Positions 19,415 through 54,332 of a stretch of 64,000 nt of DNA are shown piece by piece (position 1 is the stretch's first letter; the number at the start of each line of letters is the position of its first letter). Under the pieces are notes generated by a model. That model did not search any database, had not been told where the DNA came from, and worked only from the letters and a program-made list of their open reading frames with translations. The DNA lies in the NCBI GenBank assembly GCA_020428105.1, contig JAGQNK010000001.1, forward strand, positions 1,830 to 65,829. Reading direction: 5' to 3'. Both the position numbers and the translations under genes were made by a program. Source of the DNA: Candidatus Saccharimonadota bacterium. GTDB lineage: Bacteria; Patescibacteriota; Saccharimonadia; Saccharimonadales; JAGQNK01.

Positions 19415-19810
19415 ATGCAACTCTCAGATGATGAATGGCGCAAGAAGTTGACTTCTGAGCAATATACTGTCCTTCGTCAAAAGGGCACGGAAGTGCCATT
19501 TTCTGGCGATTTACTGAACAATGACAAGACAGGGGAGTACCGGTGCGTAGCATGCGGAAACCTACTCTTTCGTAGTGATGCCAAGTACGAGTCTGATGTT
19601 GCTGGACTTGCTGGTTGGCCAAGTTTTGCGGATGTTGCTCAGAACGGGGCGATTGAACTAAAAGACGATGATAGCCACGGTATGCAACGCATTGAGGTGG
19701 TTTGTGCAAAGTGCGGCGGCCACCTCGGACACTTGTTCGATGATGCAGGCTCTCCAACCAATAAACATTACTGCATAAATTCCTGTGCCCTAGACTTCAC
19801 CAAGGGTTAA
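19415..19810 (+). CDS. msrB: Peptide-methionine (R)-S-oxide reductase
   Basis: Two CxxC pairs (CVACG, CAKCGGHLGHLFDD) and the C-terminal YCINSCAL catalytic region. Confidence 0.92.
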   Translation: MQLSDDEWRKKLTSEQYTVLRQKGTEVPFSGDLLNNDKTGEYRCVACGNLLFRSDAKYESDVAGLAGWPSFADVAQNGAIELKDDDSHGMQRIEVVCAKCGGHLGHLFDDAGSPTNKHYCINSCALDFTKG

Positions 19811-20541
19811 ATACCAAAGAATTCCTCAAGTGTTTGGATATTTGTTTTTTTCATCTCAGAGGCTAGTTCTTTGCCGACGTAGCGGATATGCCAAGGCTCA
19901 TATCGATAGCCTGTAATTTGATCTTTACTCTCTGGGTAGCGAACAATAAAACCGAACTTGTAGGCATTGGCGGCGACCCATTTACCTTCGGCTGTATTAC
20001 CAAAACAATCCTCGATCCCACAGCCTCCGCCGCCAATGTCGATACTCAGGCCGGTCTGGTGTTCGCTGTGTCCTGGCTTCGCGCTTTGAGTATCGGCCAC
20101 AGTTTGGCCGTACGTTTCAACTTCGCGGGCGTAAACCACCTGTTGAGTTTGATATGAGCGATAGCCACTCATAGGTTGCAGTGTAAGGTTTTCGGCACTT
20201 GCAGCTTTGAGCATTTTTGTAAGTGCGTTTGCTGCTTCTTGTCGCATCTGCTGTCCGTTGCCAACGGAAACTAAATCCTGAGGGGTGTAGGTTATAGGAT
20301 CAAATGACCTCTGTTTATTGACGATTATCCAAATACTCTGTGGGTCGTTAATTGAATGCGTAGTTTTGTCGAATACTGGTTTGGCCACGGGCTTATCGAC
20401 ATTATCGGGAGCTGTTGTATTAGAATGGATTGGATTTGTTTGTGTTTGTTCTGGCGGATTCTTGCGAAGCAAAAGTACCACTGTCGCACATACAATTATG
20501 AGTATGAAAAGTATTACGAACGTTTGATGGCGTTTAGTCAT
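19807..20541 (-). CDS. M15-family D-Ala-D-Ala carboxypeptidase (VanY-like)
   Basis: SGYRSYQTQ, SEHQTGLSIDI and EPWHIRYVG motifs with an N-terminal TM anchor. Confidence 0.8.
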   Translation of the reverse strand: MTKRHQTFVILFILIIVCATVVLLLRKNPPEQTQTNPIHSNTTAPDNVDKPVAKPVFDKTTHSINDPQSIWIIVNKQRSFDPITYTPQDLVSVGNGQQMRQEAANALTKMLKAASAENLTLQPMSGYRSYQTQQVVYAREVETYGQTVADTQSAKPGHSEHQTGLSIDIGGGGCGIEDCFGNTAEGKWVAANAYKFGFIVRYPESKDQITGYRYEPWHIRYVGKELASEMKKTNIQTLEEFFGI

Positions 20542-20601
20542 TACACTATCTAGTATATCGACAAGACGCTTGATTGCGAAAGGTGCGGTATAATATCACT
20601 A

Positions 20602-21156
20602 ATGGCCGACAAGAACACAATACCAACTCGTTTGCTCTGGGTCGACCTAGAGATGACTGGACTTGAGCCAGCTAAAGACGTGTTGCTGGAGATAGCGGTA
20701 GAGATTACGGATTTTAACTTCAAGACTTTAGCGAACTATGAAGCGCGTATCAAGCAGAAAAGAGATGTCGTAATTGACCGAATGCAAAAGAATATCTGGT
20801 GGCGTGATTATCCGGCCAATAGGGATGACTTTGTAAATAAGCTGGACTCTGGTAAGCCACTGGCAGAGGTTGAACAAGATATGCTGGTTCTGGTTGGCGA
20901 GCATTTCGGTAACGAACTAGCTGTGCTGGCTGGTAATTCCATATACAATGACCGACTATTTATCAAGCAGTGGATGCCTGCGTTTGATTTAAAATTACAC
21001 TATCGAATGCTCGATGTCAGTAGCTTCAAGATATTGATGCAGGGCAAACACGGTGAGGTGTTTGAAAAGGATTCAACGCACCGAGCCTTTGACGATATTC
21101 AGGCTTCAATTGCCGAACTACAGCATTACCTGGAATGGTTTCGTCACAACTCGTAA
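20602..21156 (+). CDS. orn: Oligoribonuclease
   Basis: LLWVDLEMTGL DEDD exonuclease motif, 184 aa. ATG lies 7 nt after TATAAT (20589-20594). Confidence 0.85.
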   Translation: MADKNTIPTRLLWVDLEMTGLEPAKDVLLEIAVEITDFNFKTLANYEARIKQKRDVVIDRMQKNIWWRDYPANRDDFVNKLDSGKPLAEVEQDMLVLVGEHFGNELAVLAGNSIYNDRLFIKQWMPAFDLKLHYRMLDVSSFKILMQGKHGEVFEKDSTHRAFDDIQASIAELQHYLEWFRHNS

Positions 21157-21226
21157 CTCTCTCGATACACAATATTGTAATATCCGCACAACTGTAGTAT
21201 AATATACTAGATTTAGTGGAGTTTTC

Positions 21227-22351
21227 ATGCAAGGAAACAACGAAGTTTTTGTGACCCAGCCAACAGACTTACGTCAACTTAAGCACAATGCTTTGCAAGC
21301 AAAGCTGGATGCTGTCGTTCAGTTGGGCGCTCTGGGGTCTGTGGTTGATGAAAGTGCTTGGCGCACAGTTGAGGATGAAGCATATTCAGCAATTCACGAG
21401 TATGCAGATGTGTATGGTGTAGCTGTTGACGAAGAAGGTATGGCTTTTAGGCGAGATTTTGCTACAGCGCTGAATACTAGGCTGAGAATAGGCATAAATC
21501 CATTAAAAAGTCAGATGATAGATGATCCTGCGACCTTTACGGAGCATGCGCGTCGGAAGGGTCTGTTGAGTGATCCAGCTAATGCAATTCCTGATAATGT
21601 TGTTGTGCGTTTTGATCGCGCAGTAGACGGCGTGGATGAAGTTGGCCTGTTTGGCAGACGCAGTGCCACAGGGGCGGTAGATACTGGGTCTGGGTTATTT
21701 AATGCCGTTGGGCCATTGACAGGCGCAGAGCACAGCATGCAAGCAACCCACAGCCAGACTATTCGCCAGAAGCTTGGCACTTTTGTGAGCAATATCTGGA
21801 CCGAAAGAAACGTCAGTAGTCGACAGGATAAAATAAAAGGTTATGTGGTAAAGGGTATCGCTGCGGTCGCTCTTGCCGGAGTGGCGGTGTTTGGTGTTGC
21901 GAAATGTAGCGACACGGTTGAAATGAAGTCAAGTGAAGAAGGAATTGCGACCATTTCAACAGTCCCTTCTACTACAGAGCCAGACTGGCAAATAGATTTG
22001 CCCACAACTACAACGTCGATATTGTCAGAAGTTATTCCCAATTCGCCAGTATCATCATCTGATATCACGACAGACGGACAAATAGAGACACTCACACCTG
22101 CGCCGGCTGAGATGATTGATTCTGTATCTGTCATGATCATACCGGAAGGCAGTAGCGTGTGGCGAGAATTAAAAAAATCATACTCGCAGCCAGGCATTTG
22201 TGATGAAGAAATGGACATGCGTATATTGGCCGCTTTGCCATCTTTGCGTCGAGACAATACACACATAAGTAATCTTAGCGAGATAAATATAGGGCAAGCT
22301 ATTACTATTGGCCCAGAGGCAATGAGTATTCTGGCGGGTACTCGCGTTTAG
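21227..22351 (+). CDS. Hypothetical single-pass membrane protein with C-terminal LysM-like segment
   Basis: Central TM (GIAAVALAGVAVFGVA) and an S/T/P-rich linker. The C-terminus IIPEGSSVWRELKKSY...INIGQAITIG resembles LysM. Confidence 0.45.
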   Translation: MQGNNEVFVTQPTDLRQLKHNALQAKLDAVVQLGALGSVVDESAWRTVEDEAYSAIHEYADVYGVAVDEEGMAFRRDFATALNTRLRIGINPLKSQMIDDPATFTEHARRKGLLSDPANAIPDNVVVRFDRAVDGVDEVGLFGRRSATGAVDTGSGLFNAVGPLTGAEHSMQATHSQTIRQKLGTFVSNIWTERNVSSRQDKIKGYVVKGIAAVALAGVAVFGVAKCSDTVEMKSSEEGIATISTVPSTTEPDWQIDLPTTTTSILSEVIPNSPVSSSDITTDGQIETLTPAPAEMIDSVSVMIIPEGSSVWRELKKSYSQPGICDEEMDMRILAALPSLRRDNTHISNLSEINIGQAITIGPEAMSILAGTRV

Positions 22352-22374
22352 GGTTGGTGTAAAATACGATTAGT

Positions 22375-22701
22375 ATGGACCATCAAACTGTCGAAACATA
22401 TTTGTTGAGTATGCCAAATTCTAGGTTAGATTATCCTTTTGGTGAAGGAGTGGCTGTATATAAAGTCAAAGATAAGATGTTTGCTCTGATTGCAGAGGGC
22501 AAGATGCCTGTGCGTATTAGTCTGAAGTGTGACCCGGAACTTTCGAAAGTATTACGCGAAAAGTATACCGAAGTCATGGAAGGTTACCATCTAAACAAGA
22601 AGCACTGGAATACTATTATTCTGAGTGGTCAGCTGGATTGGGATGAGGTTCAGGGTTTAATACGACACTCGTATGACTTAGTTGCAAAGCAGCTTAGTTA
22701 G
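22375..22701 (+). CDS. MmcQ/YjbR family DNA-binding protein
   Basis: DYPFGE..VYKV..KMFALI...ISLKCDPE...HLNKKHWNTI pattern. Confidence 0.7.
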   Translation: MDHQTVETYLLSMPNSRLDYPFGEGVAVYKVKDKMFALIAEGKMPVRISLKCDPELSKVLREKYTEVMEGYHLNKKHWNTIILSGQLDWDEVQGLIRHSYDLVAKQLS

Positions 22702-23418: not shown

Positions 23419-24750
23419 ATGAAAGATAGAGATTCATCCATTCCAACATTAGAAGTACAGGGTCGTATGCTAACGCCTCAGCAAATGCTAGTAATAGGCG
23501 CATTGGCTACTACGTTGTACTCCGGTGCAGCCAATTATTTCAACGGTGAAAACGGCAAGCCAAAACTACCAGCGATTGACATAGAAATGGAAAGTCATCA
23601 TAAGGTTGTTGCTGAGCACGAAACTCCAATCACCGTTCAAGATCAGGATGGTTCTACTACTACAGTTGTTGACGGCAGACATGGTAGCGGTGATACAGTC
23701 GATTCATCTAGTAGGCAAACTCAAATAATTGCTGACACTATGACAGAGAGGTGGGCTCGACAGTTTGCTGATGATGCTGAGTCGGGTAGGTTGATTGATC
23801 CTGGAGAGATTGATATATTTGCTTCATCTGTAAAAACAGAGCTGGACCAAGGGTGGGTTATTGATGGAATGTCGTTTCGCGGAACGGCATCTGCTGAAGA
23901 TGATTCGGTAAATGAACGAGGAGTTAGGACGGCGGGCTTGCAGGTAACTACACCAGAAGCTGCCGCCAAACAGGATGAACTAGGAAATGAGCGACGTGAC
24001 ATAGGCACAATGCAACTTGCTGCGGCCTTGCAAGAAAGAGGCGTATCTGTAGACCCTGCGATGATTGACTTACTACCGTCTATAGAGGATGTTCTGACTG
24101 ATGACGAAGTAATTATGGTAGATCAATTGGCGCAGAGTTTTGGACATGTATCAACGACGCAAATGATAGAACAGTGGAACCGCGATCCAGCCTCGGTTGA
24201 TCCTGCCGTTGATATAGTGCTGACAGAATTTCTGGCTCAGGAACGAACTTTTCAGGTAGAAGTATCTATGTCTAGGACAAGCAGTGCTGAAGAAAGAAGT
24301 GTGCCGGAGTCAGAACAGGATACTGGTGATGATGGTGGCACTATTAAAGAACACAGTGAACATGAAGAAAGTGAAACCAGCAAATTCAGGTTCTTGCCAA
24401 TCATCATACCTGGCTATATTGCTTTTGCCATAGGTAGACGAAAGTTACCAAGCAACCCAACTCCACATATCGTTACTGAGGTGCCCGGCGCTGGCCCATT
24501 GCCCCCTAGAAAGACACCAGTTGAAGCGCCACCAACGCACAAACCACCAAAGCCTCCAGTTCCACCGACTCAGCGTGAACGATTCCCTCATCCAAAATCT
24601 GACCAAATGCCAAAATCACAAGTGACTGATACTGCTTTCCATCGAAAACAGCCTCGAAACCATAACTTTCATGGACGAGCAGGGCATATAGCAGGTGGTC
24701 CTGGACGAATGAGTCGTAGCAGGGGCGGCAATAGATCTGGCAAACGTTAG
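23419..24750 (+). CDS. Hypothetical protein with TM segment and Pro/basic-rich tail (443 aa)
   Basis: TTGACA/TGtGATAAT promoter at about 23349-23376. TM FRFLPIIIPGYIAFAIG, then a PPKPPVPP-rich basic tail. Confidence 0.5.
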   Translation: MKDRDSSIPTLEVQGRMLTPQQMLVIGALATTLYSGAANYFNGENGKPKLPAIDIEMESHHKVVAEHETPITVQDQDGSTTTVVDGRHGSGDTVDSSSRQTQIIADTMTERWARQFADDAESGRLIDPGEIDIFASSVKTELDQGWVIDGMSFRGTASAEDDSVNERGVRTAGLQVTTPEAAAKQDELGNERRDIGTMQLAAALQERGVSVDPAMIDLLPSIEDVLTDDEVIMVDQLAQSFGHVSTTQMIEQWNRDPASVDPAVDIVLTEFLAQERTFQVEVSMSRTSSAEERSVPESEQDTGDDGGTIKEHSEHEESETSKFRFLPIIIPGYIAFAIGRRKLPSNPTPHIVTEVPGAGPLPPRKTPVEAPPTHKPPKPPVPPTQRERFPHPKSDQMPKSQVTDTAFHRKQPRNHNFHGRAGHIAGGPGRMSRSRGGNRSGKR

Positions 24751-24861
24751 CTCGTGAACTGCATTACCGTGCAGTGCGCAATGACTTGACGACTGGTGCA
24801 CACCGGCTCTTTAACACGCTCATACTTGCCACTAGACGCTATCTGCTTGATACTTATCAAT

Positions 24862-26610
24862 ATGGATGCGGTAGAAGAGGTAAAATCCAGATTAGCCATA
24901 GAGGACGTCATCGGTGAGTATGTCCAGCTCAAACGTGCTGGGCGCAACTACAAAGGTCTTAGTCCTTTTGGTGCTGAAAAGACACCTAGTTTCATTGTTA
25001 GTCCCGAAAAGCAGATTTGGCATGATTTTTCGTCTGGTCGGGGTGGTGACATGTTTAGTTTTGTTATGGAGATGGAAGGACTAGACTTCAAGAGCGCACT
25101 CGAGCATCTGGCGCGCAAAGCCGGAGTTGATCTAGAGCAGTTTCAGACTGGCAGGAGAGCAGACTTCGGCAAGGTAAAAGAGCGGTTACACGAAGCCCAT
25201 GAGTTGGCCACCAAGTTTTATCAAGCACAGTTCAAACAGAACCAAACAGCGCTTGATTATATTTTCAAACAGCGCAAGTTTACCAAAGACGTAGCGTTGG
25301 CATTTCGGATTGGCTACTCACCAAACAATGGCACTGCGCTGTTGGACTTTTTGAAGAAAAAAGGCTTTACGGAAGCAGAGCTAGTGAAGTCAGGTCTGGT
25401 TACCAAGCGTTATCGAACGGCTAATGACATGTTCCGTGGGCGGATTCAGATTCCACTGATGAATGCGCAGGGTAGGGTTATTGGCTTTACGGCTAGACTG
25501 CTCGAAGACGCACCGAATGCTCCAAAGTATCTGAACACTCCTCAAACGCTTTTGTACGATAAAGGACGTCATGTGTATGGGTTACATTTGGCCAAAGACA
25601 GTATTCGCCGTTGTGGTTATGTTGTTGTAGTGGAGGGAAATTTGGATGTTATTGCCAGTCATCAGGCGGGTATTGCTCAGGTTGTCGCTACGGCGGGTAC
25701 GGCAATGACCGAGATGCATCTAAAAGCTTTAAATCGCTTTACGGGTGATATTCGACTAGCATTTGATCAGGATAGGGCAGGTTTGACAGCAGCCGAACGG
25801 GCAATTCCAATTGCTGGCAAGGTTGGCGTTAATCTGAGTATGATTACCGTACCTGAAGGTAAAGATCCTGATGAATTGGTAAAGAAAGACCCGGCGCTGT
25901 GGCGTAGCGTGATTGAAGACCAACAGTATGCCGTGGACTGGTTGATGGACCGCTATGCAGCGGAATTGGACCTGAGTACGGCCATGGGCAAACGTAAGTT
26001 TAGTGATGTTGTGCTTCGTGTGGTGCGTCAACTGCCTGACCAGGTGGAGCAAGAACATTACATCGGTGAAATAGCCAAAAGTGTTGGCGTTAGCAGACAG
26101 GCTCTTGAACAAAAAATGAATTCAAGCGAAGCTGTCCAGCGAGTAAGCCTCAAAAAGGGCAAGGCAACTCCTCGGACATTGGACCCAGCCCTTATTGACC
26201 GCAAAAAAACCCAGGATCAATTTATGTCATTGGTTTTGATGCAGCCACCACTGAGACATTATCTAAAGCCAATCACTTATGACATGCTGATGAACGAACA
26301 GGCTCATCAGTTACTTCGGTTTTTGCAGGACAATCCATTGTTCAATGGCGATTCCAAGGAAGCCGAGGCCTTGAGTGATGTGGCGGATTATGTTAAAATC
26401 TTAGGATTACAGTTCGATGAATTATATCGACGCCACGAGCTATTGGAACTTCGTAACGAAGCCGCTCGACTGCAGGAAAAACTCATAAAACAATACGTTC
26501 AAGCAAAAAAACAACCAATAACAGAGGCGCTGGCTCATGCTGAAGGCGATGAGTTAAAGCGTTTGCTGCAGCAGGTGAAAGACCTGGACAATCTACTAGG
26601 CAAATTTTAA
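24862..26610 (+). CDS. dnaG: DNA primase
   Basis: The N-terminal block AIEDVIGEYVQLKRAGRNYKGL.PF..EKTPSF and the TOPRIM block VVVEGNLDVIASHQAG. Start taken at MDAVEE. Confidence 0.9.
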   Translation: MDAVEEVKSRLAIEDVIGEYVQLKRAGRNYKGLSPFGAEKTPSFIVSPEKQIWHDFSSGRGGDMFSFVMEMEGLDFKSALEHLARKAGVDLEQFQTGRRADFGKVKERLHEAHELATKFYQAQFKQNQTALDYIFKQRKFTKDVALAFRIGYSPNNGTALLDFLKKKGFTEAELVKSGLVTKRYRTANDMFRGRIQIPLMNAQGRVIGFTARLLEDAPNAPKYLNTPQTLLYDKGRHVYGLHLAKDSIRRCGYVVVVEGNLDVIASHQAGIAQVVATAGTAMTEMHLKALNRFTGDIRLAFDQDRAGLTAAERAIPIAGKVGVNLSMITVPEGKDPDELVKKDPALWRSVIEDQQYAVDWLMDRYAAELDLSTAMGKRKFSDVVLRVVRQLPDQVEQEHYIGEIAKSVGVSRQALEQKMNSSEAVQRVSLKKGKATPRTLDPALIDRKKTQDQFMSLVLMQPPLRHYLKPITYDMLMNEQAHQLLRFLQDNPLFNGDSKEAEALSDVADYVKILGLQFDELYRRHELLELRNEAARLQEKLIKQYVQAKKQPITEALAHAEGDELKRLLQQVKDLDNLLGKF

Positions 26611-26628: not shown

Positions 26629-27732
26629 ATGGCTGAAGATGATCAGAAAAAAGCCGAAGCTAAGGCTGCACTTATAGAAAAAGCTAAAAAAGACGGTAAA
26701 ATTAACCAACAAGATATTTTCGCAAGTATTCCTGAAACACCCGAAAATGCAAACATTCTTGATGAGCTGTATACCGAGCTGGCCGATGCAAACATTATGG
26801 TTGTAGCGCCCAACGAGCCAAAAGCAGCGCTTTCTGGTGATTGGGTAGACGAGGATGGAGATGAAGAAATTGACCTTAGTGAAAAGGTCATCATGGACGA
26901 TATCGCTGACGACTCGGTCCGTCTGTATTTGCGTGAAATCGGAAAAATACCTCTACTGAAAGCCGACGAAGAATTAGCGCTAGCACAACGTGTAGTAGCT
27001 GGTGACAAAGCTGCAAAAGACGAGATGGCCGAAGCGAATATGCGTCTGGTTGTTTCTATAGCCAAGCGTTATGTTGGTCGTGGCTTGGATCTACTCGACC
27101 TTATTCAGGAAGGTAACACCGGTCTTCTTAGAGCAGTCGAAAAGTTCGATCCTGATAAAGGATTTAAGTTCTCTACATATGCTACATGGTGGATACGACA
27201 GGCAATTACTCGCGCAATTGCTGACCAGGCTCGAACTATTCGTATTCCGGTTCATATGGTGGAAACTATCAACAAACTCTTGCGTACCCAGCGTCGCTTG
27301 ACTCAGGATCTTAACCGCGAACCGACCAACGAAGAAATCGCCAAAGAGATGGAGATTGATGTTGAAAAAGTTGAGCATATCATGAAGATCAAGCAGGATA
27401 TCAGTTCGCTAGATGCTAGTGTACGTGATGATGAAGAAGATTCTGTGTTGGCAGATTTCATCGAAGACGAAGACACAATCAGTCCTGAAGAATCTGCCAC
27501 CAATCAGCTGCTAAAAGAGCACGTCAAGGATATGCTAGGCAGCCTTACTGAGCGTGAGCAAAAGATTCTTAAGCTCCGTTTTGGGCTAGAAGATGGCAAG
27601 AGCCATACCCTCGAGGAAGTTGGCCAAGAATTTTCTGTGACCCGCGAGAGAATTCGTCAGATAGAAGCCAAAGCACTTGCAAAGCTACGCAAGCACAAGG
27701 ATTCCAAAAAATTACATGATTACATCAAATAA
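26629..27732 (+). CDS. rpoD: RNA polymerase sigma factor RpoD (primary sigma-70)
   Basis: Region 2 ([41 protein letters not shown]), RIPVHMVE, and region 4 ([24 protein letters not shown]). Confidence 0.95.
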
Positions 27733-28300: not shown

Positions 28301-28326
28301 ACACATATTTGTGATAATATTTGTTC

Positions 28327-29097
28327 ATGAGTAAAAACGAAGCAATTACAAATATTGACACCAAGAAACCAATTAAGCCATCAACTCTGCGCAAGGCAGC
28401 ATTAGCTCTTGTTGGTGCTGGGGTGCTTGTAGCTGGTTGTGTCGACCAGTCTGACAAAGAGATTGCAAAACCAATGCCGGCAGAAGCAACTAGTAATATT
28501 CCTAAAAAAACCAATGATGGTAAAGTGCCAGGTCCTATCAACGAACCAGGCTCTCCAGATAATGCGAGTCTTGCTCCCGAGATCGGTAGTGCGGCTATGG
28601 TTGAAATGGCTACTACACCGGAGCAAAACGCAGAGTTCCAGATGTCAGCTACGACGCTCGCTACTTCAATTGTAGATTTGTACAACCAGGGCATAGGCAG
28701 TAAGAACTTTATTCATACTGACGAACAAAGCGGACGACAATATTTAAACGTTATTAACAATGCAACTGATAATAGTGGCTACTATGTGTTGGTGGTGGGA
28801 CTTCCTGCGCACTCACTTAACCCTAGCGAGGCAACAAGTGTCCATGTGTCAATGGTACAAGGTGAGGTAGATGACAACAGAACTGTTGATGTAGATGGCG
28901 ATGGTAATGTTGATAATCGACAAGCGTTGTATTCATTAAGATTACAGAACTCAGACAACGGCTGGATGATGAGTACCGAGGTTGATCCATCTGTAGATAC
29001 CTCTGGCTTGGATCCAAACGCATCAACTGTATCTCAGCAAACGAGCTTCGCTAAACAATTAGTACTTCGTGCTGCTGACGGTGCGCCGGTAGCGTAA
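28327..29097 (+). CDS. Putative lipoprotein
   Basis: Signal peptide ending in the lipobox LVAGC (ALVGAGVLVAGCVDQS). TGtGATAAT lies 8 nt upstream of the ATG. Confidence 0.6.
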   Translation: MSKNEAITNIDTKKPIKPSTLRKAALALVGAGVLVAGCVDQSDKEIAKPMPAEATSNIPKKTNDGKVPGPINEPGSPDNASLAPEIGSAAMVEMATTPEQNAEFQMSATTLATSIVDLYNQGIGSKNFIHTDEQSGRQYLNVINNATDNSGYYVLVVGLPAHSLNPSEATSVHVSMVQGEVDDNRTVDVDGDGNVDNRQALYSLRLQNSDNGWMMSTEVDPSVDTSGLDPNASTVSQQTSFAKQLVLRAADGAPVA

Positions 29098-29128: not shown

Positions 29129-30220
29129 GTGAGTGAGGTAATACAACAAACAGACAGTTTATCTGGGGGTGACTTGGACCACGGGTATGGGCAAGATATT
29201 GCTAACGAAATGCACCGCAACCTGATGATATGGGCGCGAGAGTATGTAGGTAGTATGGATGCTCCTGTCAATGATATTCTGGATCCAGTAGGACCGGAAA
29301 CTTCGTATACGGGCGAGCTGGATTCATATAGGCAGATACTGCGAGATATTCCGGTGCTGGGTAAAGATGAAGAACGTGCATTGTTTGAAAAGATTGACAA
29401 GGCCAAACTGGCAACCGCAAAGGTAGTCATAGATGGCATATGTTTTGCTAATGGTATGCCAGGCATGTTTGAACCTGCGGAAAAAGATCTATCTGATATT
29501 GCTGATGGAGTAGCTGCAAAGAAGTCCTTGGCATATCACAATCTTCGACTTGTGGCGTGGTTGGTTAGTCGCTATCAGTTCAAGACAGACTCAATTCTAG
29601 AAGCTGGCGATTTACTATCTGAGGGCATGTTTGGGTTAGACAACGCAATTGATAGATTTGATGTTTCAACGGGTAATGCGTTTAGTACTTTTGCTGTGCC
29701 TTGGGTACGCAATGGTATAACGCGTGCTGCCCGATCCGTTAGTATTATTCCAGAACATCACCACGTCAAGATTAAACCGATAAAAAGCCTGCTAAAAGCC
29801 GGTATGACACATGAAGAGATAGCCAAAGAACTCCACATGACAACAAGATCAGTAACAAGCATTATTGATTTTATCAGTACGCCCAAGTCTCTAGACGTGC
29901 CGATATCGAACGGTTCTTCTGATAAAGTGCTTGGTGATATGATTGCCGACTCGAATTCAGAAGATCCTTACAATATTATTGAACAACAGATTTCAATTAT
30001 GGGGTTGTTCGACGAGCTGAACGAAAGACAAAGTAGGGTATTGCGGCTGAGGTATGGTATTGGCTCACCTGAAGGTCCTATGACCCTAGAGGAGATTGCT
30101 AAGCTAGAGGGTTGTTCTGGGCCGAGAATTAGACAGATCGAAAAATCAGCTTTGGAAAAATTACGCCTGATTGTCGAGCGAAAGGGTTTAACCCAGGAAG
30201 AGCATCTCGTTTCTAGCTAA
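29129..30220 (+). CDS. Alternative sigma-70 family sigma factor
   Basis: Region 2 (LLSEGMFGLDNAIDRFDVSTGNAFSTFAVPWVRNGITRAA) and region 4 (MTLEEIAKLEGCSGPRIRQIEKSALEKLR). GTG start. Confidence 0.8.
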   Translation: MSEVIQQTDSLSGGDLDHGYGQDIANEMHRNLMIWAREYVGSMDAPVNDILDPVGPETSYTGELDSYRQILRDIPVLGKDEERALFEKIDKAKLATAKVVIDGICFANGMPGMFEPAEKDLSDIADGVAAKKSLAYHNLRLVAWLVSRYQFKTDSILEAGDLLSEGMFGLDNAIDRFDVSTGNAFSTFAVPWVRNGITRAARSVSIIPEHHHVKIKPIKSLLKAGMTHEEIAKELHMTTRSVTSIIDFISTPKSLDVPISNGSSDKVLGDMIADSNSEDPYNIIEQQISIMGLFDELNERQSRVLRLRYGIGSPEGPMTLEEIAKLEGCSGPRIRQIEKSALEKLRLIVERKGLTQEEHLVSS

Positions 30221-38871: not shown

Positions 38872-39753
38872 ATGCCAGAATTGCCAGAAGTAGAGACAGT
38901 CAGAACCGGACTTAGCCAGCTTTTACTCGGGAAGCTAATAGCTAAAGAAGAACATGATTGGCCAAAGGGCTTTCCTAACACTGACTTTGATGTCCAAAGT
39001 TTCATGATTGGCGTAGAAATACTGGGAATTCGCCGCCGAGCAAAAGTCTTGATCATCGACCTGAGTAGTGCCTATTCGCTTGTAGTTCACCTTAAGATGA
39101 CTGGTCAATTGGTTTTTGTCGGACGTGATTATAGGTTTGGCGCCGGTCACCCAAATGATTCGCTAGTAGGTAGTCTGCCAGACAAATCCACTCGTGTGAC
39201 GCTGACATTTGACGATGGAAGTAGACTGTTCTTTAACGACCAGCGCAAGTTTGGCTGGATGCGCTTATTGCCAACGGCCGAAGTGCCCAATATAGATTTT
39301 TTCAAACGTGTCGGGCCTGAACCGCTGGCAGATGATTTTACGGCCACGGCGTTTAGGGAACGTCTAAAGGTACGCCAAAACAGTATGATTAAAGCAGTGT
39401 TATTGGATCAATCGGTTATAGCTGGGGTGGGTAATATTTATGCTGATGAGTCACTTTGGGCTGCAAAAATTCATCCCGCTGAGCGAGTAAAGAACATCGG
39501 TGACAGGAAAATGAACACATTATTTAACGAACTCCGCGCAATATTGAAGCTATCCATAGATAAGGGCGGCTCATCAGACAAAAACTACGTCAACGCCGAA
39601 GGTAAACGTGGTAGTTATTTGAGCTTTGCTAATGTCTTTCGCCGCGAAGGCAAGCCGTGCTTCAGACATCCAGACACACTGATCGAAAAATCACGTGTTG
39701 CAGGACGTGGCACGCACACTTGTCCAAAATGTCAAAAGCTAAAAGCTGCGTAG
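38872..39753 (+). CDS. mutM: Formamidopyrimidine-DNA glycosylase
   Basis: The MPELPEVETVR N-terminus, the H2TH region (LLDQSVIAGVGNIYADESLW) and the C-terminal CPKCQ. Confidence 0.9.
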   Translation: MPELPEVETVRTGLSQLLLGKLIAKEEHDWPKGFPNTDFDVQSFMIGVEILGIRRRAKVLIIDLSSAYSLVVHLKMTGQLVFVGRDYRFGAGHPNDSLVGSLPDKSTRVTLTFDDGSRLFFNDQRKFGWMRLLPTAEVPNIDFFKRVGPEPLADDFTATAFRERLKVRQNSMIKAVLLDQSVIAGVGNIYADESLWAAKIHPAERVKNIGDRKMNTLFNELRAILKLSIDKGGSSDKNYVNAEGKRGSYLSFANVFRREGKPCFRHPDTLIEKSRVAGRGTHTCPKCQKLKAA

Positions 39754-42083: not shown

Positions 42084-42240
42084 TGTTAACTTATTCCTTA
42101 TTTTAATTAGTTATTGTATAAGTCGACAGTCAATATAACCTTTTTGACCGAAGTTGTAAAGTGATCATGTTAATTTGTTGTAGACATGCTTGTGTTTATG
42201 TGGTACATTTGCCTTGAATAATTGTAAACAAAAATCAAAC

Positions 42241-44736
42241 ATGGAAAACCCCAAGAACCAATTAGCCGACAAGCTCAAAGAAGCAAATAATGTACTCGTT
42301 ACGGTAAGTGCCAATCCAACCGTTGATCAACTATCGGCGGCCATTGGTTTAACCTTGTTTCTAACAAAGCTTAAAAAGCACGCAACAACCGTATTTAGCG
42401 GACAGGTGCCGTCAACAATTGATTTCTTGAAGCCCGAAGAAACGATCGAGACCAACACTGACTCACTCCGTGACTTTATTATTTCGTTGGACAAGAACAA
42501 AGCCGACAAGATTCGCTACAAAGTCGAAGACACAATGGTGAAGATTTTTATCACGCCTTACCGAACCTCGATCAACGATACCGATCTGGTGTTTAGCCAA
42601 GGCGATTTTAATGTCGATGTTGTCGTGGCTATCGGCATACAAAAGAGAGAGGACATCGATCAGGCTATTATGGCGCACGGTCGTATTTTGCACGATGCAG
42701 TTGTTGCTACGGTAAACATCGATAGTGGGTCTGATCTGGGCACATTGAACTGGTCTGACCAAAAAGCTAGCAGTTTGTGTGAAATGGTAGTTGGCTTAAC
42801 TGATCTACTCAAGACAAACACCTTGGATGGGCAAATGGCAACTGCATTCTTGACAGGTATTGTGGCTGAAACCGAGCGTTTTAGTAACGAAAAGACAACT
42901 TCTACAACAATGAATGCCAGTGCCAAGCTTATGACTGCTGGCGCCAACCAACAGCTGGTAGCGACCAAACTGAAATCTGCAGTCCCAGAACAACAGGCCA
43001 CTAGCCCACAGCAAAGCCCTGCGGAGGATGCCGAATCTGAAACTCCAAAAGACGCAGTTATGGATGACGATGGTTCATTGCGAATTAATCATCCAAGCAG
43101 TATTCCGGAGACTGATGAAACTCAGACAGATGCACCGCTTAAGCCTGTTGCGCCTGCGGCATCTCCGGCCGCACCACCATCTAATTTACCAGAACCATGG
43201 GTTCCTGATTCTCATGTTCCTGCTGGGTCAAATATTGCAGCAGAGGCTGTATCAAACGAATCTACGAACAACACGAACCCCTCCGCGTCTACAGAAGTAG
43301 GGGTGCCAAATACTCCCAATAGTCAGTTTGGCACATCGTTGGTCACTGAGCCGCCGCGCTTTGGCGGACAGTTAAGCGCTGCAGCAGATGATTCTAGCAA
43401 CGAAACTAACCCTCTAAATCTGCCATCCAGCACAGAAACACCGCTGTTGAATCACAAGCCCAGTCCAGCACAGGGCGCACCGGTAGCACCACCTGCTACT
43501 CCAGCACCGATCAATAATGGCCCGCCAGAACCATATACGGTCTTTGAGCCAGAGGCACAAAAGACGAGCCCTGAGCCAAAGGATCTGCCACCCGTCTTAC
43601 CCAAATCGGCCGAACCTCGTTCCAACCCGCCAATAGATTTTCCCAAGGCGGTTGATTCAGCAAGTCTGGATCTACCAACACCGCCGCAACTACCAGCCGC
43701 ACCGCAGCCCATAGCTCAGGCGCCACAAAAGCCGGTCTCAACTGGCCAGCCTTATGTTGATATGGGCAATAAGACCCTTGATGATATTGAGAAGAGGGTT
43801 GACAGTAGGCATCAAGATCTTGATGAGCCATTTAAGCTTCCCGAACAGTTTGTTCGCACTCTAGATCATACGACGCTTTCTGGTATCGAAGAAAAGGTTG
43901 ACAGTCCACACACTATACAGCCTAAGCCTGAAGCCCCAAAGGCTACACCTGACAATGAAGACTATCACAAGGTGGCGGCTAGCCAGGTAGCCAAGGCAAT
44001 GTCTGGGACTACTCTGGACAAAATAGAAGAAAAAGTCGATAGTCCACACTTACAGGATAGGCAAGCGCAGGCTTTGGAAGCTTCAGAAGAAATAGTAGAA
44101 GATAAGACGCTTGGACTTAGCTACGAATCCCACGAGTCAGAGCCAGCCGAGCAAGTAGATCCGCCCAAAGAAGAGCCCGTAAGCAGTGAGCCGGTAATTG
44201 ATAAAAGCACTTCGACACCTTCAGTAGATGCATTGCAACAATCCGTGACAGAAGCTTCATCGATAGTCGAAGACTCCAAGCGACCAGTAGCACAAACAGC
44301 AACAACTAGTGAAGCGGATAAGCCTGGAGAAGAAGATACCCTCGAAAAGCAAGAAAAAGCTCGTGAGGCGGTGATGCGAGCAATCAACTCTGGTGGGGAT
44401 GGGCGTTCGGCGTTACCACCATTGGCGGGCATAGGTACTACTGGGGTTATGGAAGTAGGTCATAAAGATGATTCAGCTCAGACGGCCACTACAACAGATC
44501 CTCCAGCGGTACCGCCACCACTGAAGCCAGTCCCTCACAGCGGTCCTTCGCCAAATATTAGTATTGATCCCGAAGACGGTAGCTTTGTACCATTACCGCC
44601 TAGCCTACTACCAAATAGTGACGAATTGCCCGTAGATGCAACTGCCTCTGGTTCAGATGAGGCAAGTGCTCCACCAGAAGTACCACCACCTATGATGCCT
44701 CCGGTTGCAGCTCCTGCCAGTAGTGCAAAGTCATAG
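42241..44736 (+). CDS. DHH-like (NrnA-like) N-terminal domain protein with degenerate catalytic motifs and a long Pro-rich disordered tail
   Basis: LVTVSANPTVDQLSAAIGLTLFL aligns by eye to the NrnA motif I/II region (H..PDGDaiGS) but lacks the Asp/His ligands. The C-terminal ~550 aa are P/S/T/A-rich. Confidence 0.55.
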   Translation: MENPKNQLADKLKEANNVLVTVSANPTVDQLSAAIGLTLFLTKLKKHATTVFSGQVPSTIDFLKPEETIETNTDSLRDFIISLDKNKADKIRYKVEDTMVKIFITPYRTSINDTDLVFSQGDFNVDVVVAIGIQKREDIDQAIMAHGRILHDAVVATVNIDSGSDLGTLNWSDQKASSLCEMVVGLTDLLKTNTLDGQMATAFLTGIVAETERFSNEKTTSTTMNASAKLMTAGANQQLVATKLKSAVPEQQATSPQQSPAEDAESETPKDAVMDDDGSLRINHPSSIPETDETQTDAPLKPVAPAASPAAPPSNLPEPWVPDSHVPAGSNIAAEAVSNESTNNTNPSASTEVGVPNTPNSQFGTSLVTEPPRFGGQLSAAADDSSNETNPLNLPSSTETPLLNHKPSPAQGAPVAPPATPAPINNGPPEPYTVFEPEAQKTSPEPKDLPPVLPKSAEPRSNPPIDFPKAVDSASLDLPTPPQLPAAPQPIAQAPQKPVSTGQPYVDMGNKTLDDIEKRVDSRHQDLDEPFKLPEQFVRTLDHTTLSGIEEKVDSPHTIQPKPEAPKATPDNEDYHKVAASQVAKAMSGTTLDKIEEKVDSPHLQDRQAQALEASEEIVEDKTLGLSYESHESEPAEQVDPPKEEPVSSEPVIDKSTSTPSVDALQQSVTEASSIVEDSKRPVAQTATTSEADKPGEEDTLEKQEKAREAVMRAINSGGDGRSALPPLAGIGTTGVMEVGHKDDSAQTATTTDPPAVPPPLKPVPHSGPSPNISIDPEDGSFVPLPPSLLPNSDELPVDATASGSDEASAPPEVPPPMMPPVAAPASSAKS

Positions 44737-53438: not shown

Positions 53439-54332
53439 ATGAAAGTTGAACGCTACACCGTAGACACCTTTCATCTGGACTTTCCAGATGACGCTACGTG
53501 TCTTGACTACATGTTCAACCTGGCCTACGGCAATCTCCCGGCCTGCCCTCAATGCGGTGTTACTAAACCTCGTTACTACCGCGTCCGCAACCGCAAATGC
53601 TACGCCTGTAACGACTGCGGCTACCAAATAAGTCCACTAGCTAACACTATATTCCACAAGTCTGAAACACCACTGACTAAATGGTTTTACGCTATCTACC
53701 TATTCAGTGTCGGTAAGAACGGTGTATCAGCTAAAGAATTAGAACGACACTTAGGCGTGACGTATAAGACTGCCTGGCGTATGGCTAAACAAATCCGCCT
53801 GATGATGCAACAAGGCGGTTCGCCACTTACCGGAACGGTTGAGGCTGATGAAACGTATATAGGCGGTAAAACCCGTCGCGATCGTATGTACGACAACAAA
53901 ACAGCCGTTGTCGGTATTGTTGAAAAGCAAAAAGGCACAGGCCAAGTTAAGGCGTTCGCTACCAAACAAGCAGACGCTACTGTAACATTGCCATTTCTGC
54001 GAGCCAGCATAACTCCCGGCTCAACTCTGCACACGGACGACAGCCGTATCTACTCACGTGTTAAGCGCGACTTCTCCCACGAGTTTGTTAATCACAGTAA
54101 GTTAGAATACGTAAAATCTGGCGTACACACCAACACCATTGAAGGCTTTTGGGGTCAGCTTAAGCGGTCACTCGACGGTACGTACCACTGTGTTAGTCCG
54201 AAGTATCTTCAGCTTTACGTGAACGAATTCGTTTACCGGTATAACCACCGGAACGTCGCGGCTTTCCCGGCTTTGATTCAAGCGGCTGCGCGGCCTGTTT
54301 TAACATCTTCTCGAAATCTTCCTTTGCGTTAG
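53439..54332 (+). mobile_element. IS1595-family (ISXO2-like) transposase gene
   Basis: N-terminal zinc ribbon (CPQCG..CNDCGYQISPLANTIFHKSETPLTKWF), then VEADETYIGGK, HTDDSRIY and NTIEGFWGQLKRS..YVNEFVYRYNHRN. A sampled 60-nt stretch is about 57% GC by hand count. Confidence 0.85.

Follow-up and report, generated by a model that had tools for sequence, protein, structure and literature searches.

The dnaG locus

The window, by which we mean the whole 64-kb stretch of DNA analyzed here, carries on its forward strand (24862..26610) an uninterrupted open reading frame for a DnaG primase of 582 amino acids plus stop. The start is placed at the ATG at 24862 because every homolog opens with MDAVEE. 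The TIGR01391 dnaG model reports a score of 382.8 bits against a cut-off of 283.6, with profile positions 6-413/414 covered, and Pfam identifies the domains Zn_ribbon_DnaG, DNAG_N, Toprim, and DnaB_bind. The protein is identical to P0001, 'DNA primase [Candidatus Saccharibacteria bacterium]', which is found on 5 public contigs.

Reading from the N-terminus, with all features on the forward strand, we find a zinc-binding domain (ZBD) without Cys or His ligands (24868..25140, amino acids 3-93; PF01807, E=1.3e-29), then the RNA-polymerase domain (RPD) with its Toprim fold (25216..25881; Pfam DNAG_N and Toprim), the DnaB_bind helical subdomain (25936..26100; PF10410, E=2.5e-12), and a C-terminal helical domain presumed to interact with the helicase (26185..26607), for which AF2 predicts helices over residues 442-581 with pLDDT 83-95. 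The acidic catalytic motifs EGNLD (25633-25647), DQD (25765-25773), and DPD (25864-25872) are all intact. These three, as well as PKYLNTP and FRGRIQIP, align to the solved DnaG cores 5GUJ and 4E2K and are invariant among homologs, and the AF2 model of the catalytic core superposes on solved DnaG cores with TM 0.86-0.89 and rmsd ~2.5 A. The extreme C-terminus of the protein has no specific family match; poorly conserved C-terminal domains are usual for DnaG (PMC8928506).

The open reading frame of rpoD, the primary sigma-70 (26629..27732, forward strand), lies 19 bases downstream of the dnaG stop, and the two genes form the classical dnaG-rpoD operon, which is intact here. Upstream there is a syntenic block with MsrB, RNase_T, and YjbR (19415..22701, forward strand, assigned by Pfam). 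Rfam and tRNA scans of the 64-kb window report nothing relevant.

Two relatives with different residues at the ligand positions tell us what kind of gene this is. P0135 (L081), which bears the canonical CHCC, and P0139 (L083), which bears S-T-C-S-S, are found in the same neighborhood as the dnaG in the window, that is, MsrB...RNase_T...YjbR...dnaG-rpoD-AAA-sigma70...PolA...Fpg. The order dnaG-rpoD-AAA_17/18-sigma70 of the window is also that of L081, L083, and L084, and the window RpoD is 73-76% identical to the RpoD of L081 and L083. In the relatives with CHCC and with S-x-C-S-S, dnaG is found at this same place in the gene order, and therefore the zinc-less gene is the ortholog, as opposed to an extra copy.

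Replacement of the zinc ligands

A phmmer comparison aligns the ZBD to that of B. stearothermophilus (PDB 1D0Q) without gaps, with E=2.9e-31 and ~59% identity over 92-93 residues. In the gap-free alignment to 1D0Q and 2AU3, residues Ser34, Gly37, Asp55, and Ser58 fall exactly under the Cys, His, Cys, and Cys that bind zinc. Where the solved domain reads nyfglCpfHgektpsf...kqifhCfgCgagg, the sequence here reads nykglSpfGaektpsf...kqiwhDfsSgrgg. The CHC2 pattern (Cys-x2-His...Cys-x2-Cys) is absent, and we are left with two knuckles without any Cys or His ligand.

On the forward strand, Ser34 (codon agt, 24961..24963) replaces ligand 1, a Cys; Gly37 (codon ggt, 24970..24972), at a variable position, replaces ligand 2, the His; Asp55 (codon gat, 25024..25026) replaces ligand 3, a Cys; and Ser57-Ser58 (25030..25035) replace a Gly and ligand 4, the last Cys, with Ser58 encoded by tct at 25033-25035. 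The second knuckle changes in this way from CFGC to DFSS. A preliminary description of this DNA had reported the same four replacements with the same codons, and the alignment to the two solved structures bears it out.

Could a different alignment bring other ligands into place? Residues 1-100 include no Cys and only two His, His54 and His82, and therefore there is no alternative ligand set; the whole 582-residue DnaG has a single Cys, Cys251. A shifted alignment that recruits other Cys or His residues, which the preliminary description had raised as a possible refutation, is rejected, the alignment being gap-free and the ZBD without Cys. Some relatives give the appearance of 'CHCS', 'CHCA', or 'CHCG', and these are CFGxC spacing variants in which the four ligands are still present. 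The replacement of the CHC2 ligands in this DnaG is real.

Zinc sites elsewhere in the window are retained. MsrB has its two CxxC motifs, Fpg its C-x2-H...C-x2-C finger, and the IS1595 transposase its zinc ribbon. Thus, a genome-wide avoidance of cysteine or zinc is rejected, and the change is specific to DnaG. The Cys content of the window open reading frames is lowish, at 0.61%.

Conservation across Saccharibacteria

Comparison with relatives, which the preliminary description had recommended as a way to learn how widespread the loss is, finds it clade-wide. The pattern S-x-D-S-S is present in 120/120 of the closest 90%-identity clusters. Of the best 80 species loci of Saccharibacteria in GTDB, 79 have it, the remaining 1 being unparsed. 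Among 78 species, Asp55 is invariant (78/78), no or almost no variation is seen at Ser57 and Ser58, and Ser34 is present in 77/78, with an AGY codon in 75/77, one step from the TGY of Cys. The Ser58 codons come from both serine families (TCN 53, AGY 24), which implies selection for Ser itself. Position 37 varies between species (S/G/T/N/A), and residues 25-44 as a whole are almost invariant.

The mean pairwise identity in those 78 species is higher for the ZBD (81-85%) than for the RPD (67.5%), and higher for the RPD than for the CTD (45%). Within an otherwise intact, orthologous dnaG, no part is more conserved than the ZBD, so this domain has to function in the absence of a Cys/His zinc site, and here we agree with the preliminary description. 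Its suggestion of relaxed selection does not survive, given that Ser34, Asp55, Ser57, and Ser58 show little or no variation, and that the same residues appear in parallel in three lineages.

Parallel origin in other lineages

Inside the Paceibacteria/Parcubacteria, and again inside the Dojkabacteria, we find Cys replaced by Ser, Cys by Asp, Gly by Ser, and Cys by Ser, just as in Saccharibacteria. Paceibacteria provide 12 zinc-less clusters (SHDSS, SNDSS, and similar) nested among CHCC relatives, and most of these zinc-less forms keep the ligand-2 His. In Dojkabacteria, the zinc-less forms retain the lineage-specific flank 'LQIFK-DFSSG', their sisters having 'LQI[YF]K-CFGCG'.

When analyzing the origin of the zinc-less state, we used a bootstrapped NJ tree of the catalytic domain alone, a distance-based tree of metagenome-derived sequences with taxon names as in the source records. 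In this tree each mixed-state lineage has 100% support, and a single zinc-less clade is recovered 0/100 times. A single origin with later horizontal spread of the ZBD is rejected by this tree, and also because the zinc-less forms retain lineage-specific flanking residues, and because outside the ligand columns the zinc-less ZBDs are closer to their own CHCC sisters. Using a per-lineage threshold, parallel change is mainly at positions 34, 55, 57, and 58; the first three are above the threshold in 3/3 lineages, and position 58 in 2/3. Position 58 in Paceibacteria is Ser in 4/7, and the rest are Ala and Leu.

A Gln-to-His change at position 286 is also observed in two lineages.

The sequences indicate that the zinc-less state arose separately in Saccharibacteria, in subclades of Paceibacteria (Parcubacteria), and in subclades of Dojkabacteria. 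And because the replacement is lineage-wide and has arisen independently in at least two other ultra-small bacterial groups, it has the appearance of a zinc-free design that functions, as opposed to one in decay.

A probable zincless zinc ribbon

What would hold the two knuckles together? We consider it probable that this is the single, orthologous replicative DnaG doing the normal primase job, with a metal-free ZBD held by an Asp/Ser hydrogen-bond core. The tetrahedral CHCC zinc site that normally clamps the two knuckles has been exchanged for the polar set Ser34, Asp55, Ser57, and Ser58, and the result would be a 'zincless zinc ribbon'. The three Ser hydroxyls, together with backbone amides of the knuckles, would donate hydrogen bonds to the carboxylate of Asp55, and those bonds would tie the knuckles together without a metal, as happens in the hydrogen-bonded lids of adenylate kinase and in further zincless fingers. 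Position 37, where the His used to be, would be dispensable, and hence drifting. The changes probably occurred stepwise, from CHC-G-C to S-x-C-S-S and then to S-x-D-S-S, which would have been fixed in Saccharibacteria under strong purifying selection. DNA-facing residues, linker, Toprim active site, and putative helicase-binding parts are unchanged, and therefore we expect normal Okazaki-fragment priming, which would be independent of zinc and of oxidisable thiolates.

In the AF2 model of the ZBD, the helices are retained, as are strands 44-47, 52-55, and 60-62, and confidence is low in the first knuckle (pLDDT ~40-53), with values <50 at residues 27-41 in the full-length model, and of 53 at residues 31-40 in the ZBD-only model. 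The superposition to 1D0Q is loose, with TM 0.65-0.69 and rmsd ~7 A.

In three lineages, an invariant carboxylate and three invariant hydroxyls have taken over from the soft ligands, at the same four positions each time, and this could also describe a site that has swapped its metal for a 'hard' one (Mg2+, Mn2+, Ca2+, or Na+), bound by the Asp55 carboxylate, the Ser hydroxyls, and backbone carbonyls. Primase reactions need Mg2+ or Mn2+ anyway, and 4EDG is a DnaG core with Mn. But one carboxylate with Ser hydroxyls makes a weak site for a divalent ion. Moreover, ligand 4 is sometimes Ala, Thr, or Leu, and ligand 2 sometimes Gly or Ala, to which packing and hydrogen bonding are a better fit than coordination. 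We think that such a metal swap is unlikely.

Another reading starts from the AlphaFold confidence, which is low precisely at residues 27-41. The first knuckle could be flexible without zinc, and fold on the template DNA, on the RPD, or on DnaB, resulting in a changed preference for initiation sites or in a stronger dependence on a partner, as the preliminary description had suggested; the ZBD of known primases does dock on the RPD and the template (PMC2910064). The low pLDDT may, however, be a modelling artefact, and the near-invariance of residues 25-44 in 78 species is what we expect of a folded functional hairpin. There is no extra conserved partner gene either, as the neighbors, with the exception of rpoD, differ between L081/L083, L084, and the window. 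As for initiation, the two residues before ligand 3 set the trinucleotide specificity in Gram-positive primases (PMC8928506). The equivalent residues here, Ile52-Trp53 (25015..25020, forward strand), are invariant in the 78 species, and they are I-W as well in canonical CHCC relatives within the Candidate Phyla Radiation (CPR), for instance 'IWHCFGCG', and the remainder of the ZBD surface motif is unchanged. The altered initiation specificity proposed in the preliminary description is thus not upheld, and we regard the flexible knuckle as improbable.

Ligand loss can mean function loss. The ZBD of T7 primase recognizes a trinucleotide, and the form without it loses template-directed synthesis (PMC2910064); in metazoan Twinkle, both the cysteines and the primase activity are absent (PMC3610141). 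Given also that Saccharibacteria genomes are small, one could propose that the ZBD is a decaying relic, or that this dnaG is a non-priming Twinkle-like paralog in a cell with another priming enzyme. We find this very hard to believe. The N-terminal domain of Twinkle is a member of the DnaG/T7 gp4 primase superfamily that has lost its zinc-finger cysteines (PMC3610141), and to that extent the two are alike; but Twinkle lost motif IV/V residues together with its primase activity, whereas here the Toprim acidic motifs (IV-VI) have been kept and no domain is more constrained than the ZBD. The gene occupies the ancestral dnaG-rpoD slot, syntenic with CHCC orthologs, no second dnaG-like sequence is found in the 64-kb window, and identical replacement residues have been fixed in parallel in three lineages.

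Finally, a sequencing, assembly, or frame artefact, which the preliminary description had listed as a possible refutation, can be dismissed with near certainty, as the identical protein is on 5 independent contigs, the open reading frame is uninterrupted, and the same pattern appears in all 120 clusters and in 79 of the best 80 species loci.

Comparison with other zinc sites

The DnaG in the window resembles the canonical CHC2 DnaG (1D0Q, 2AU3) in the PF..EKTPSF and GGD motifs, in the ZBD-RPD-CTD position, and in the dnaG-rpoD operon. It is unlike the canonical protein in that all four ligands and the intervening Gly have been replaced, in a ZBD without Cys.

Adenylate kinase is an example of how such a fold could be held together. 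The lid network of the E. coli enzyme is His-Ser-Asp-Thr, an Asp plus hydroxyls, as here. Adenylate kinase lids are either of a Zn-binding (Cys4) type or of a hydrogen-bond-network type, so evolution has been able to exchange a structural zinc site for a polar hydrogen-bond network in the same place, and the reverse (PMC11526920), and this is the exchange we propose for DnaG. On the other hand, the lids have another fold and another function, and in DnaG we infer the network.

As a second example, human NEIL1, of the Fpg/Nei family, reportedly has a 'zincless finger' (Doublie and coworkers are said to have described it in 2004, as Doublie et al.), in which the fold of a DNA-binding zinc finger is kept without the metal ligands. 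NEIL1 is from an unrelated protein family, and the Fpg in the window keeps its own zinc finger.

Zinc-independent (C-) paralogs are known for the zinc-ribbon ribosomal proteins L31, L33, L36, S14, and S18, where the ligands are lost and the function is kept (PMC5912738). Those are extra copies turned on under zinc limitation, in contrast with the zinc-less DnaG, which is the ortholog at the ancestral locus and is constitutive for the lineage.

What a zinc-free primase would mean

To our knowledge, every bacterial DnaG is taken to have the CHC2 zinc site, which is regarded as central to recognizing the template, and the debate over whether the zinc has a structural or a functional role goes back to the 1990s. 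A literature search for DnaG zinc loss in Saccharibacteria, Patescibacteria, or CPR found no prior report. Our judgement is evenly balanced on the more general claim that several CPR lineages (all Saccharibacteria, and subclades of Paceibacteria and Dojkabacteria) independently rebuilt the template-recognition domain of their primase into the same metal-free Ser/Asp/Ser/Ser module.

If that is the case, these lineages would be a natural experiment showing that the zinc of DnaG is purely structural and can be replaced. They would provide a natural zinc-free primase to compare with close CHCC orthologs (P0135) and with one-Cys intermediates (P0139), and a recipe of five positions (C to S, H to x, C to D, G to S, and C to S) for turning a zinc ribbon into a metal-free fold. 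The finding also supplies a sequence marker for these CPR clades.

Why would replication, but not MsrB or Fpg, be freed from zinc in these episymbionts? The chromosome replication of these CPR organisms would be independent of zinc and of oxidisable zinc-thiolates, and episymbiotic cells with poor biosynthetic capacity may have adapted in this way to scarcity of zinc or cysteine, or to oxidative stress.

A complete DnaG without its zinc ligands

The dnaG gene is an ORF of 582 codons (24862-26610, + strand). We favor the ATG start at 24862 because MDAVEE begins every homologue, a GTG at 24796 being a mechanically possible longer start. Pfam reports the full DnaG architecture, that is, Zn_ribbon_DnaG (residues 3-93, E = 1.3e-29), DNAG_N, Toprim and DnaB_bind, and the NCBIfam dnaG equivalog scores 382.8 bits, above its cut-off of 283.6. 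An identical protein is public on five contigs under the name "DNA primase [Candidatus Saccharibacteria bacterium]". The G+C content of the window is 45.6%.

We read the ligand positions from a gap-free profile alignment to the solved DnaG zinc-binding domains (ZBDs) 1D0Q (E = 2.9e-31) and 2AU3. Ser34, Gly37, Asp55 and Ser58 align with the zinc-holding Cys, His, Cys and Cys of those structures, and the Gly that separates ligands 3 and 4 is likewise replaced (CFGC to DFSS). The preliminary description had reported that all four ligands are replaced; its four codons match ours exactly, and together with the gap-free alignment they confirm the observation. Shifting the alignment does not produce a Cys/His site, as Cys is absent from residues 1-100 and His occurs there just twice (54 and 82); the single Cys of the entire protein is at position 251.

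The remainder of the enzyme, judged by motifs and by a predicted structure, appears intact. The acidic Toprim motifs EGNLD, DQD and DPD, as well as FRGR and PKYLNTP, align to solved DnaG cores and show no variation among homologues. Superposing the AlphaFold catalytic domain on the cores of E. coli, S. aureus, B. subtilis and M. tuberculosis gives TM 0.86-0.89 at an rmsd of ~2.5 Å. In metazoan Twinkle, on the other hand, cysteines, motif IV/V residues and primase activity were all lost together (PMC3610141); the intact catalytic motifs set this DnaG apart. It is a true DnaG in all tested respects save the defining metal ligands.

The ancestral locus

Searching 1.84 billion cluster representatives retrieved 148 ZBD-bearing relatives, 108 canonical and 40 without the ligands (36 S-x-D and 4 S-x-C). 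We write the residues at ligand 1, ligand 2, ligand 3, the former Gly and ligand 4 (here 34, 37, 55, 57 and 58) as, for instance, S-x-D-S-S. Among the nearest relatives that are not zinc-less are P0135, which is CHCC, and P0139, which is S-T-C-S-S and retains the ligand-3 Cys alone. Both genes were located on contigs, in the same neighborhood as the window dnaG: MsrB ... RNase_T ... YjbR ... dnaG-rpoD-AAA_17/18 kinase-second sigma-70 ... PolA ... Fpg, with neighboring proteins 35-76% identical to those of the window (RpoD 73-76%). Because it shares this neighborhood, the zinc-less gene occupies the ancestral dnaG slot and is the orthologue rather than an additional copy. The locus may plausibly have changed stepwise, from CHCC through S-x-C-S-S to S-x-D-S-S. 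We found no second dnaG within the 64-kb window.

The primary sigma factor gene rpoD (26629-27732, +) begins 19 bases 3′ of dnaG, and a second sigma-70 gene with regions 2, 3 and 4 (29129-30220, +) lies 1.4 kb from it. Between the two are the AAA_17/18 kinase-like gene and an unannotated ORF (28321-29097); the order rpoD-AAA-sigma is kept in the comparison locus L081. Directly upstream of dnaG is a 443-aa ORF with a Pro/Lys-rich tail (23419-24750, +), in place of which L081 and L083 carry a baeRF-family gene and a short minus-strand gene. Neither this ORF nor another large one (42190-44736, +, 848 aa) has a Pfam match, and no tRNA, tmRNA or Rfam family reaches the gathering threshold across the window (1-64000).

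Conservation in Saccharibacteria

Each of the 120 nearest clusters at 90% identity, which are 62-100% identical to the query, has S-x-D-S-S or S-x-D-S-T. Scanning one genome per GTDB species gave at least 570 related loci, and we analyzed the best 80, nearly all labeled Saccharibacteria, Saccharimonadales or Saccharimonadia and including complete chromosomes. The pattern is present in 79 of these 80; the other locus could not be parsed. Across 78 species the ZBD is the most conserved region of DnaG, with mean pairwise identity of 81-85%, compared with 67.5% in the RNA-polymerase domain and 45% in the C-terminal domain. Ile52, Trp53, Asp55, Phe56, Ser57 and Ser58 are invariant, position 34 is Ser in 77 of the 78, and the former His position (37; S, G, T, N or A) is the sole site of the ligand region that varies. 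The Ser34 codon is nearly always AGY, one step from the TGY of Cys. Ser58 is encoded by TCN as well as AGY codons, which argues for selection for serine itself. Relaxed selection, offered in the preliminary description as the alternative to a working zinc-free primase, is refuted by a pattern this widespread and this strongly constrained.

Some contigs with a Saccharibacteria-type zinc-less dnaG are labeled Limnocylindria, Pristimantibacillus, Bacillota, Dormiibacterota, Parcubacteria or Verrucomicrobiae (L002, L031, L034, L037, L070; P0010, P0018). These are probably binning or labeling errors.

Parallel origins in other CPR lineages

Zinc-less forms also occur in two other lineages of the Candidate Phyla Radiation (CPR). 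P0189 (S-N-D-S-S) belongs to the DnaG family of Paceibacteria/Parcubacteria (source names include Paceibacterota, Nealsonbacteria and Minisyncoccales). The 12 clusters closest to it are zinc-less (SHDSS, SHDSL, SHDSA, SNDSS, SNDSA), and the next neighbors read IWHCFGCG. The Dojkabacteria proteins P0182, P0395 and P0410 read LQIFKDFSSG, and LQI[YF]KCFGCG is found in 108 of the 120 sequences nearest to them, their closest Dojkabacteria relatives included. The lineage-specific flank is retained, with the change limited to the ligand positions.

A single event followed by transfer is rejected. In the catalytic domain, and in the ZBD outside the ligand columns, the Paceibacteria and Dojkabacteria forms resemble their CHCC sisters more closely than they do those of Saccharibacteria. 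In a neighbor-joining tree of the catalytic domain alone (100 bootstraps), mixed-state Dojkabacteria and Paceibacteria clades each have 100% support, the zinc-less subclade within the latter has 92%, and a single zinc-less clade appears in 0 of 100 replicates. A column-by-column comparison singles out positions 34, 55, 57 and 58; positions 34, 55 and 57 pass in all three lineages and 58 in two (in Paceibacteria Ser is mixed with Ala and Leu). Together these comparisons indicate parallel evolution toward one specific residue set. At least three independent events are well supported, the exact number being uncertain because the trees are distance-based and the taxon labels come from source records. 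Additional zinc-less or one-Cys DnaGs (P0152, S-K-D-S-S; P0240, P0241 and P0262, S-x-C-S-S/T) among CHCC relatives of unnamed taxonomy suggest further independent losses.

At residue 286 of the catalytic domain (25717-25719), Gln changes to His with the zinc-less state in Saccharibacteria and Paceibacteria, not in Dojkabacteria. This may be coincidence.

A probable way of working without zinc

In a zinc ribbon, two knuckles are tied together by the metal. In this DnaG the ligand positions stay polar, with an invariant carboxylate at ligand 3 and invariant hydroxyls at ligand 1, the former Gly and ligand 4. The former His position drifts, and early Paceibacteria forms still have the His. The simplest mechanism would be an Asp-centered hydrogen-bond core in place of the metal. 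Adenylate kinase lids offer a likeness, as they come in a hydrogen-bond type, with a polar network where Zn lids hold metal (PMC11526920); comparable too are the zinc-independent versions of zinc-ribbon ribosomal proteins (PMC5912738).

The AlphaFold models do not decide for or against such a core: pLDDT at the first knuckle is <50 over residues 27-41 of the full-length model and ~53 when the ZBD is modeled alone, and the ZBD model superposes on 1D0Q with TM 0.65-0.69 but rmsd ~7 Å. A hard-metal site made of Asp plus hydroxyls is possible, as is a first knuckle that folds only upon binding. One part of the earlier interpretation, that the domain works without zinc, is supported; most likely it would do so by way of the hydrogen-bond core. 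Its other part, altered initiation specificity, finds no evidence: trinucleotide specificity in Gram-positive primases is set by the residue pair before ligand 3 (PMC8928506), this pair is Ile-Trp in zinc-less and CHCC CPR relatives alike, and the DNA-facing residues are unchanged.

Possible selective pressure and significance

Zinc or cysteine economy, or the shielding of replication from thiol oxidation, can be offered as a reason only as speculation. The Cys content of the window ORFs is low (0.61%). A general purge of zinc sites is contradicted by three proteins that keep theirs. MsrB (SelR; 19415-19810, +) has both structural-zinc CxxC motifs (CVAC, CAKC), so the genome still makes Cys4 zinc proteins. 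The Fpg/MutM glycosylase (38872-39753, +) ends in PCFRH, 17 residues and CPKC, a C-x2-H...C-x2-C finger unlike the usual four-Cys one; it has no Pfam zf-FPG_IleRS match at E ≤ 1e-5, and its L081 orthologue does. An IS1595-family transposase (53439-54332, +), a mobile element within a small genome, has its N-terminal zinc ribbon intact (CxxC at residues 36, 54, 57). At a Paceibacteria-type zinc-less dnaG locus (L084, 7024-8077; GCA_040961665.1), rubrerythrin and desulfoferrodoxin genes lie just upstream, oxidative-stress defence genes of an anaerobe that are relevant if thiol oxidation is the proposed pressure.

The C-H-C-C ligands count as conserved in a recent survey of DnaG ZBDs (PMC8928506), and our full-text search found nothing relevant linking Saccharibacteria, Patescibacteria or CPR with DnaG or primase and zinc. 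What appears to be new is a natural DnaG without zinc ligands, fixed across Saccharibacteria and, by the sequence comparisons, convergently evolved elsewhere in CPR.
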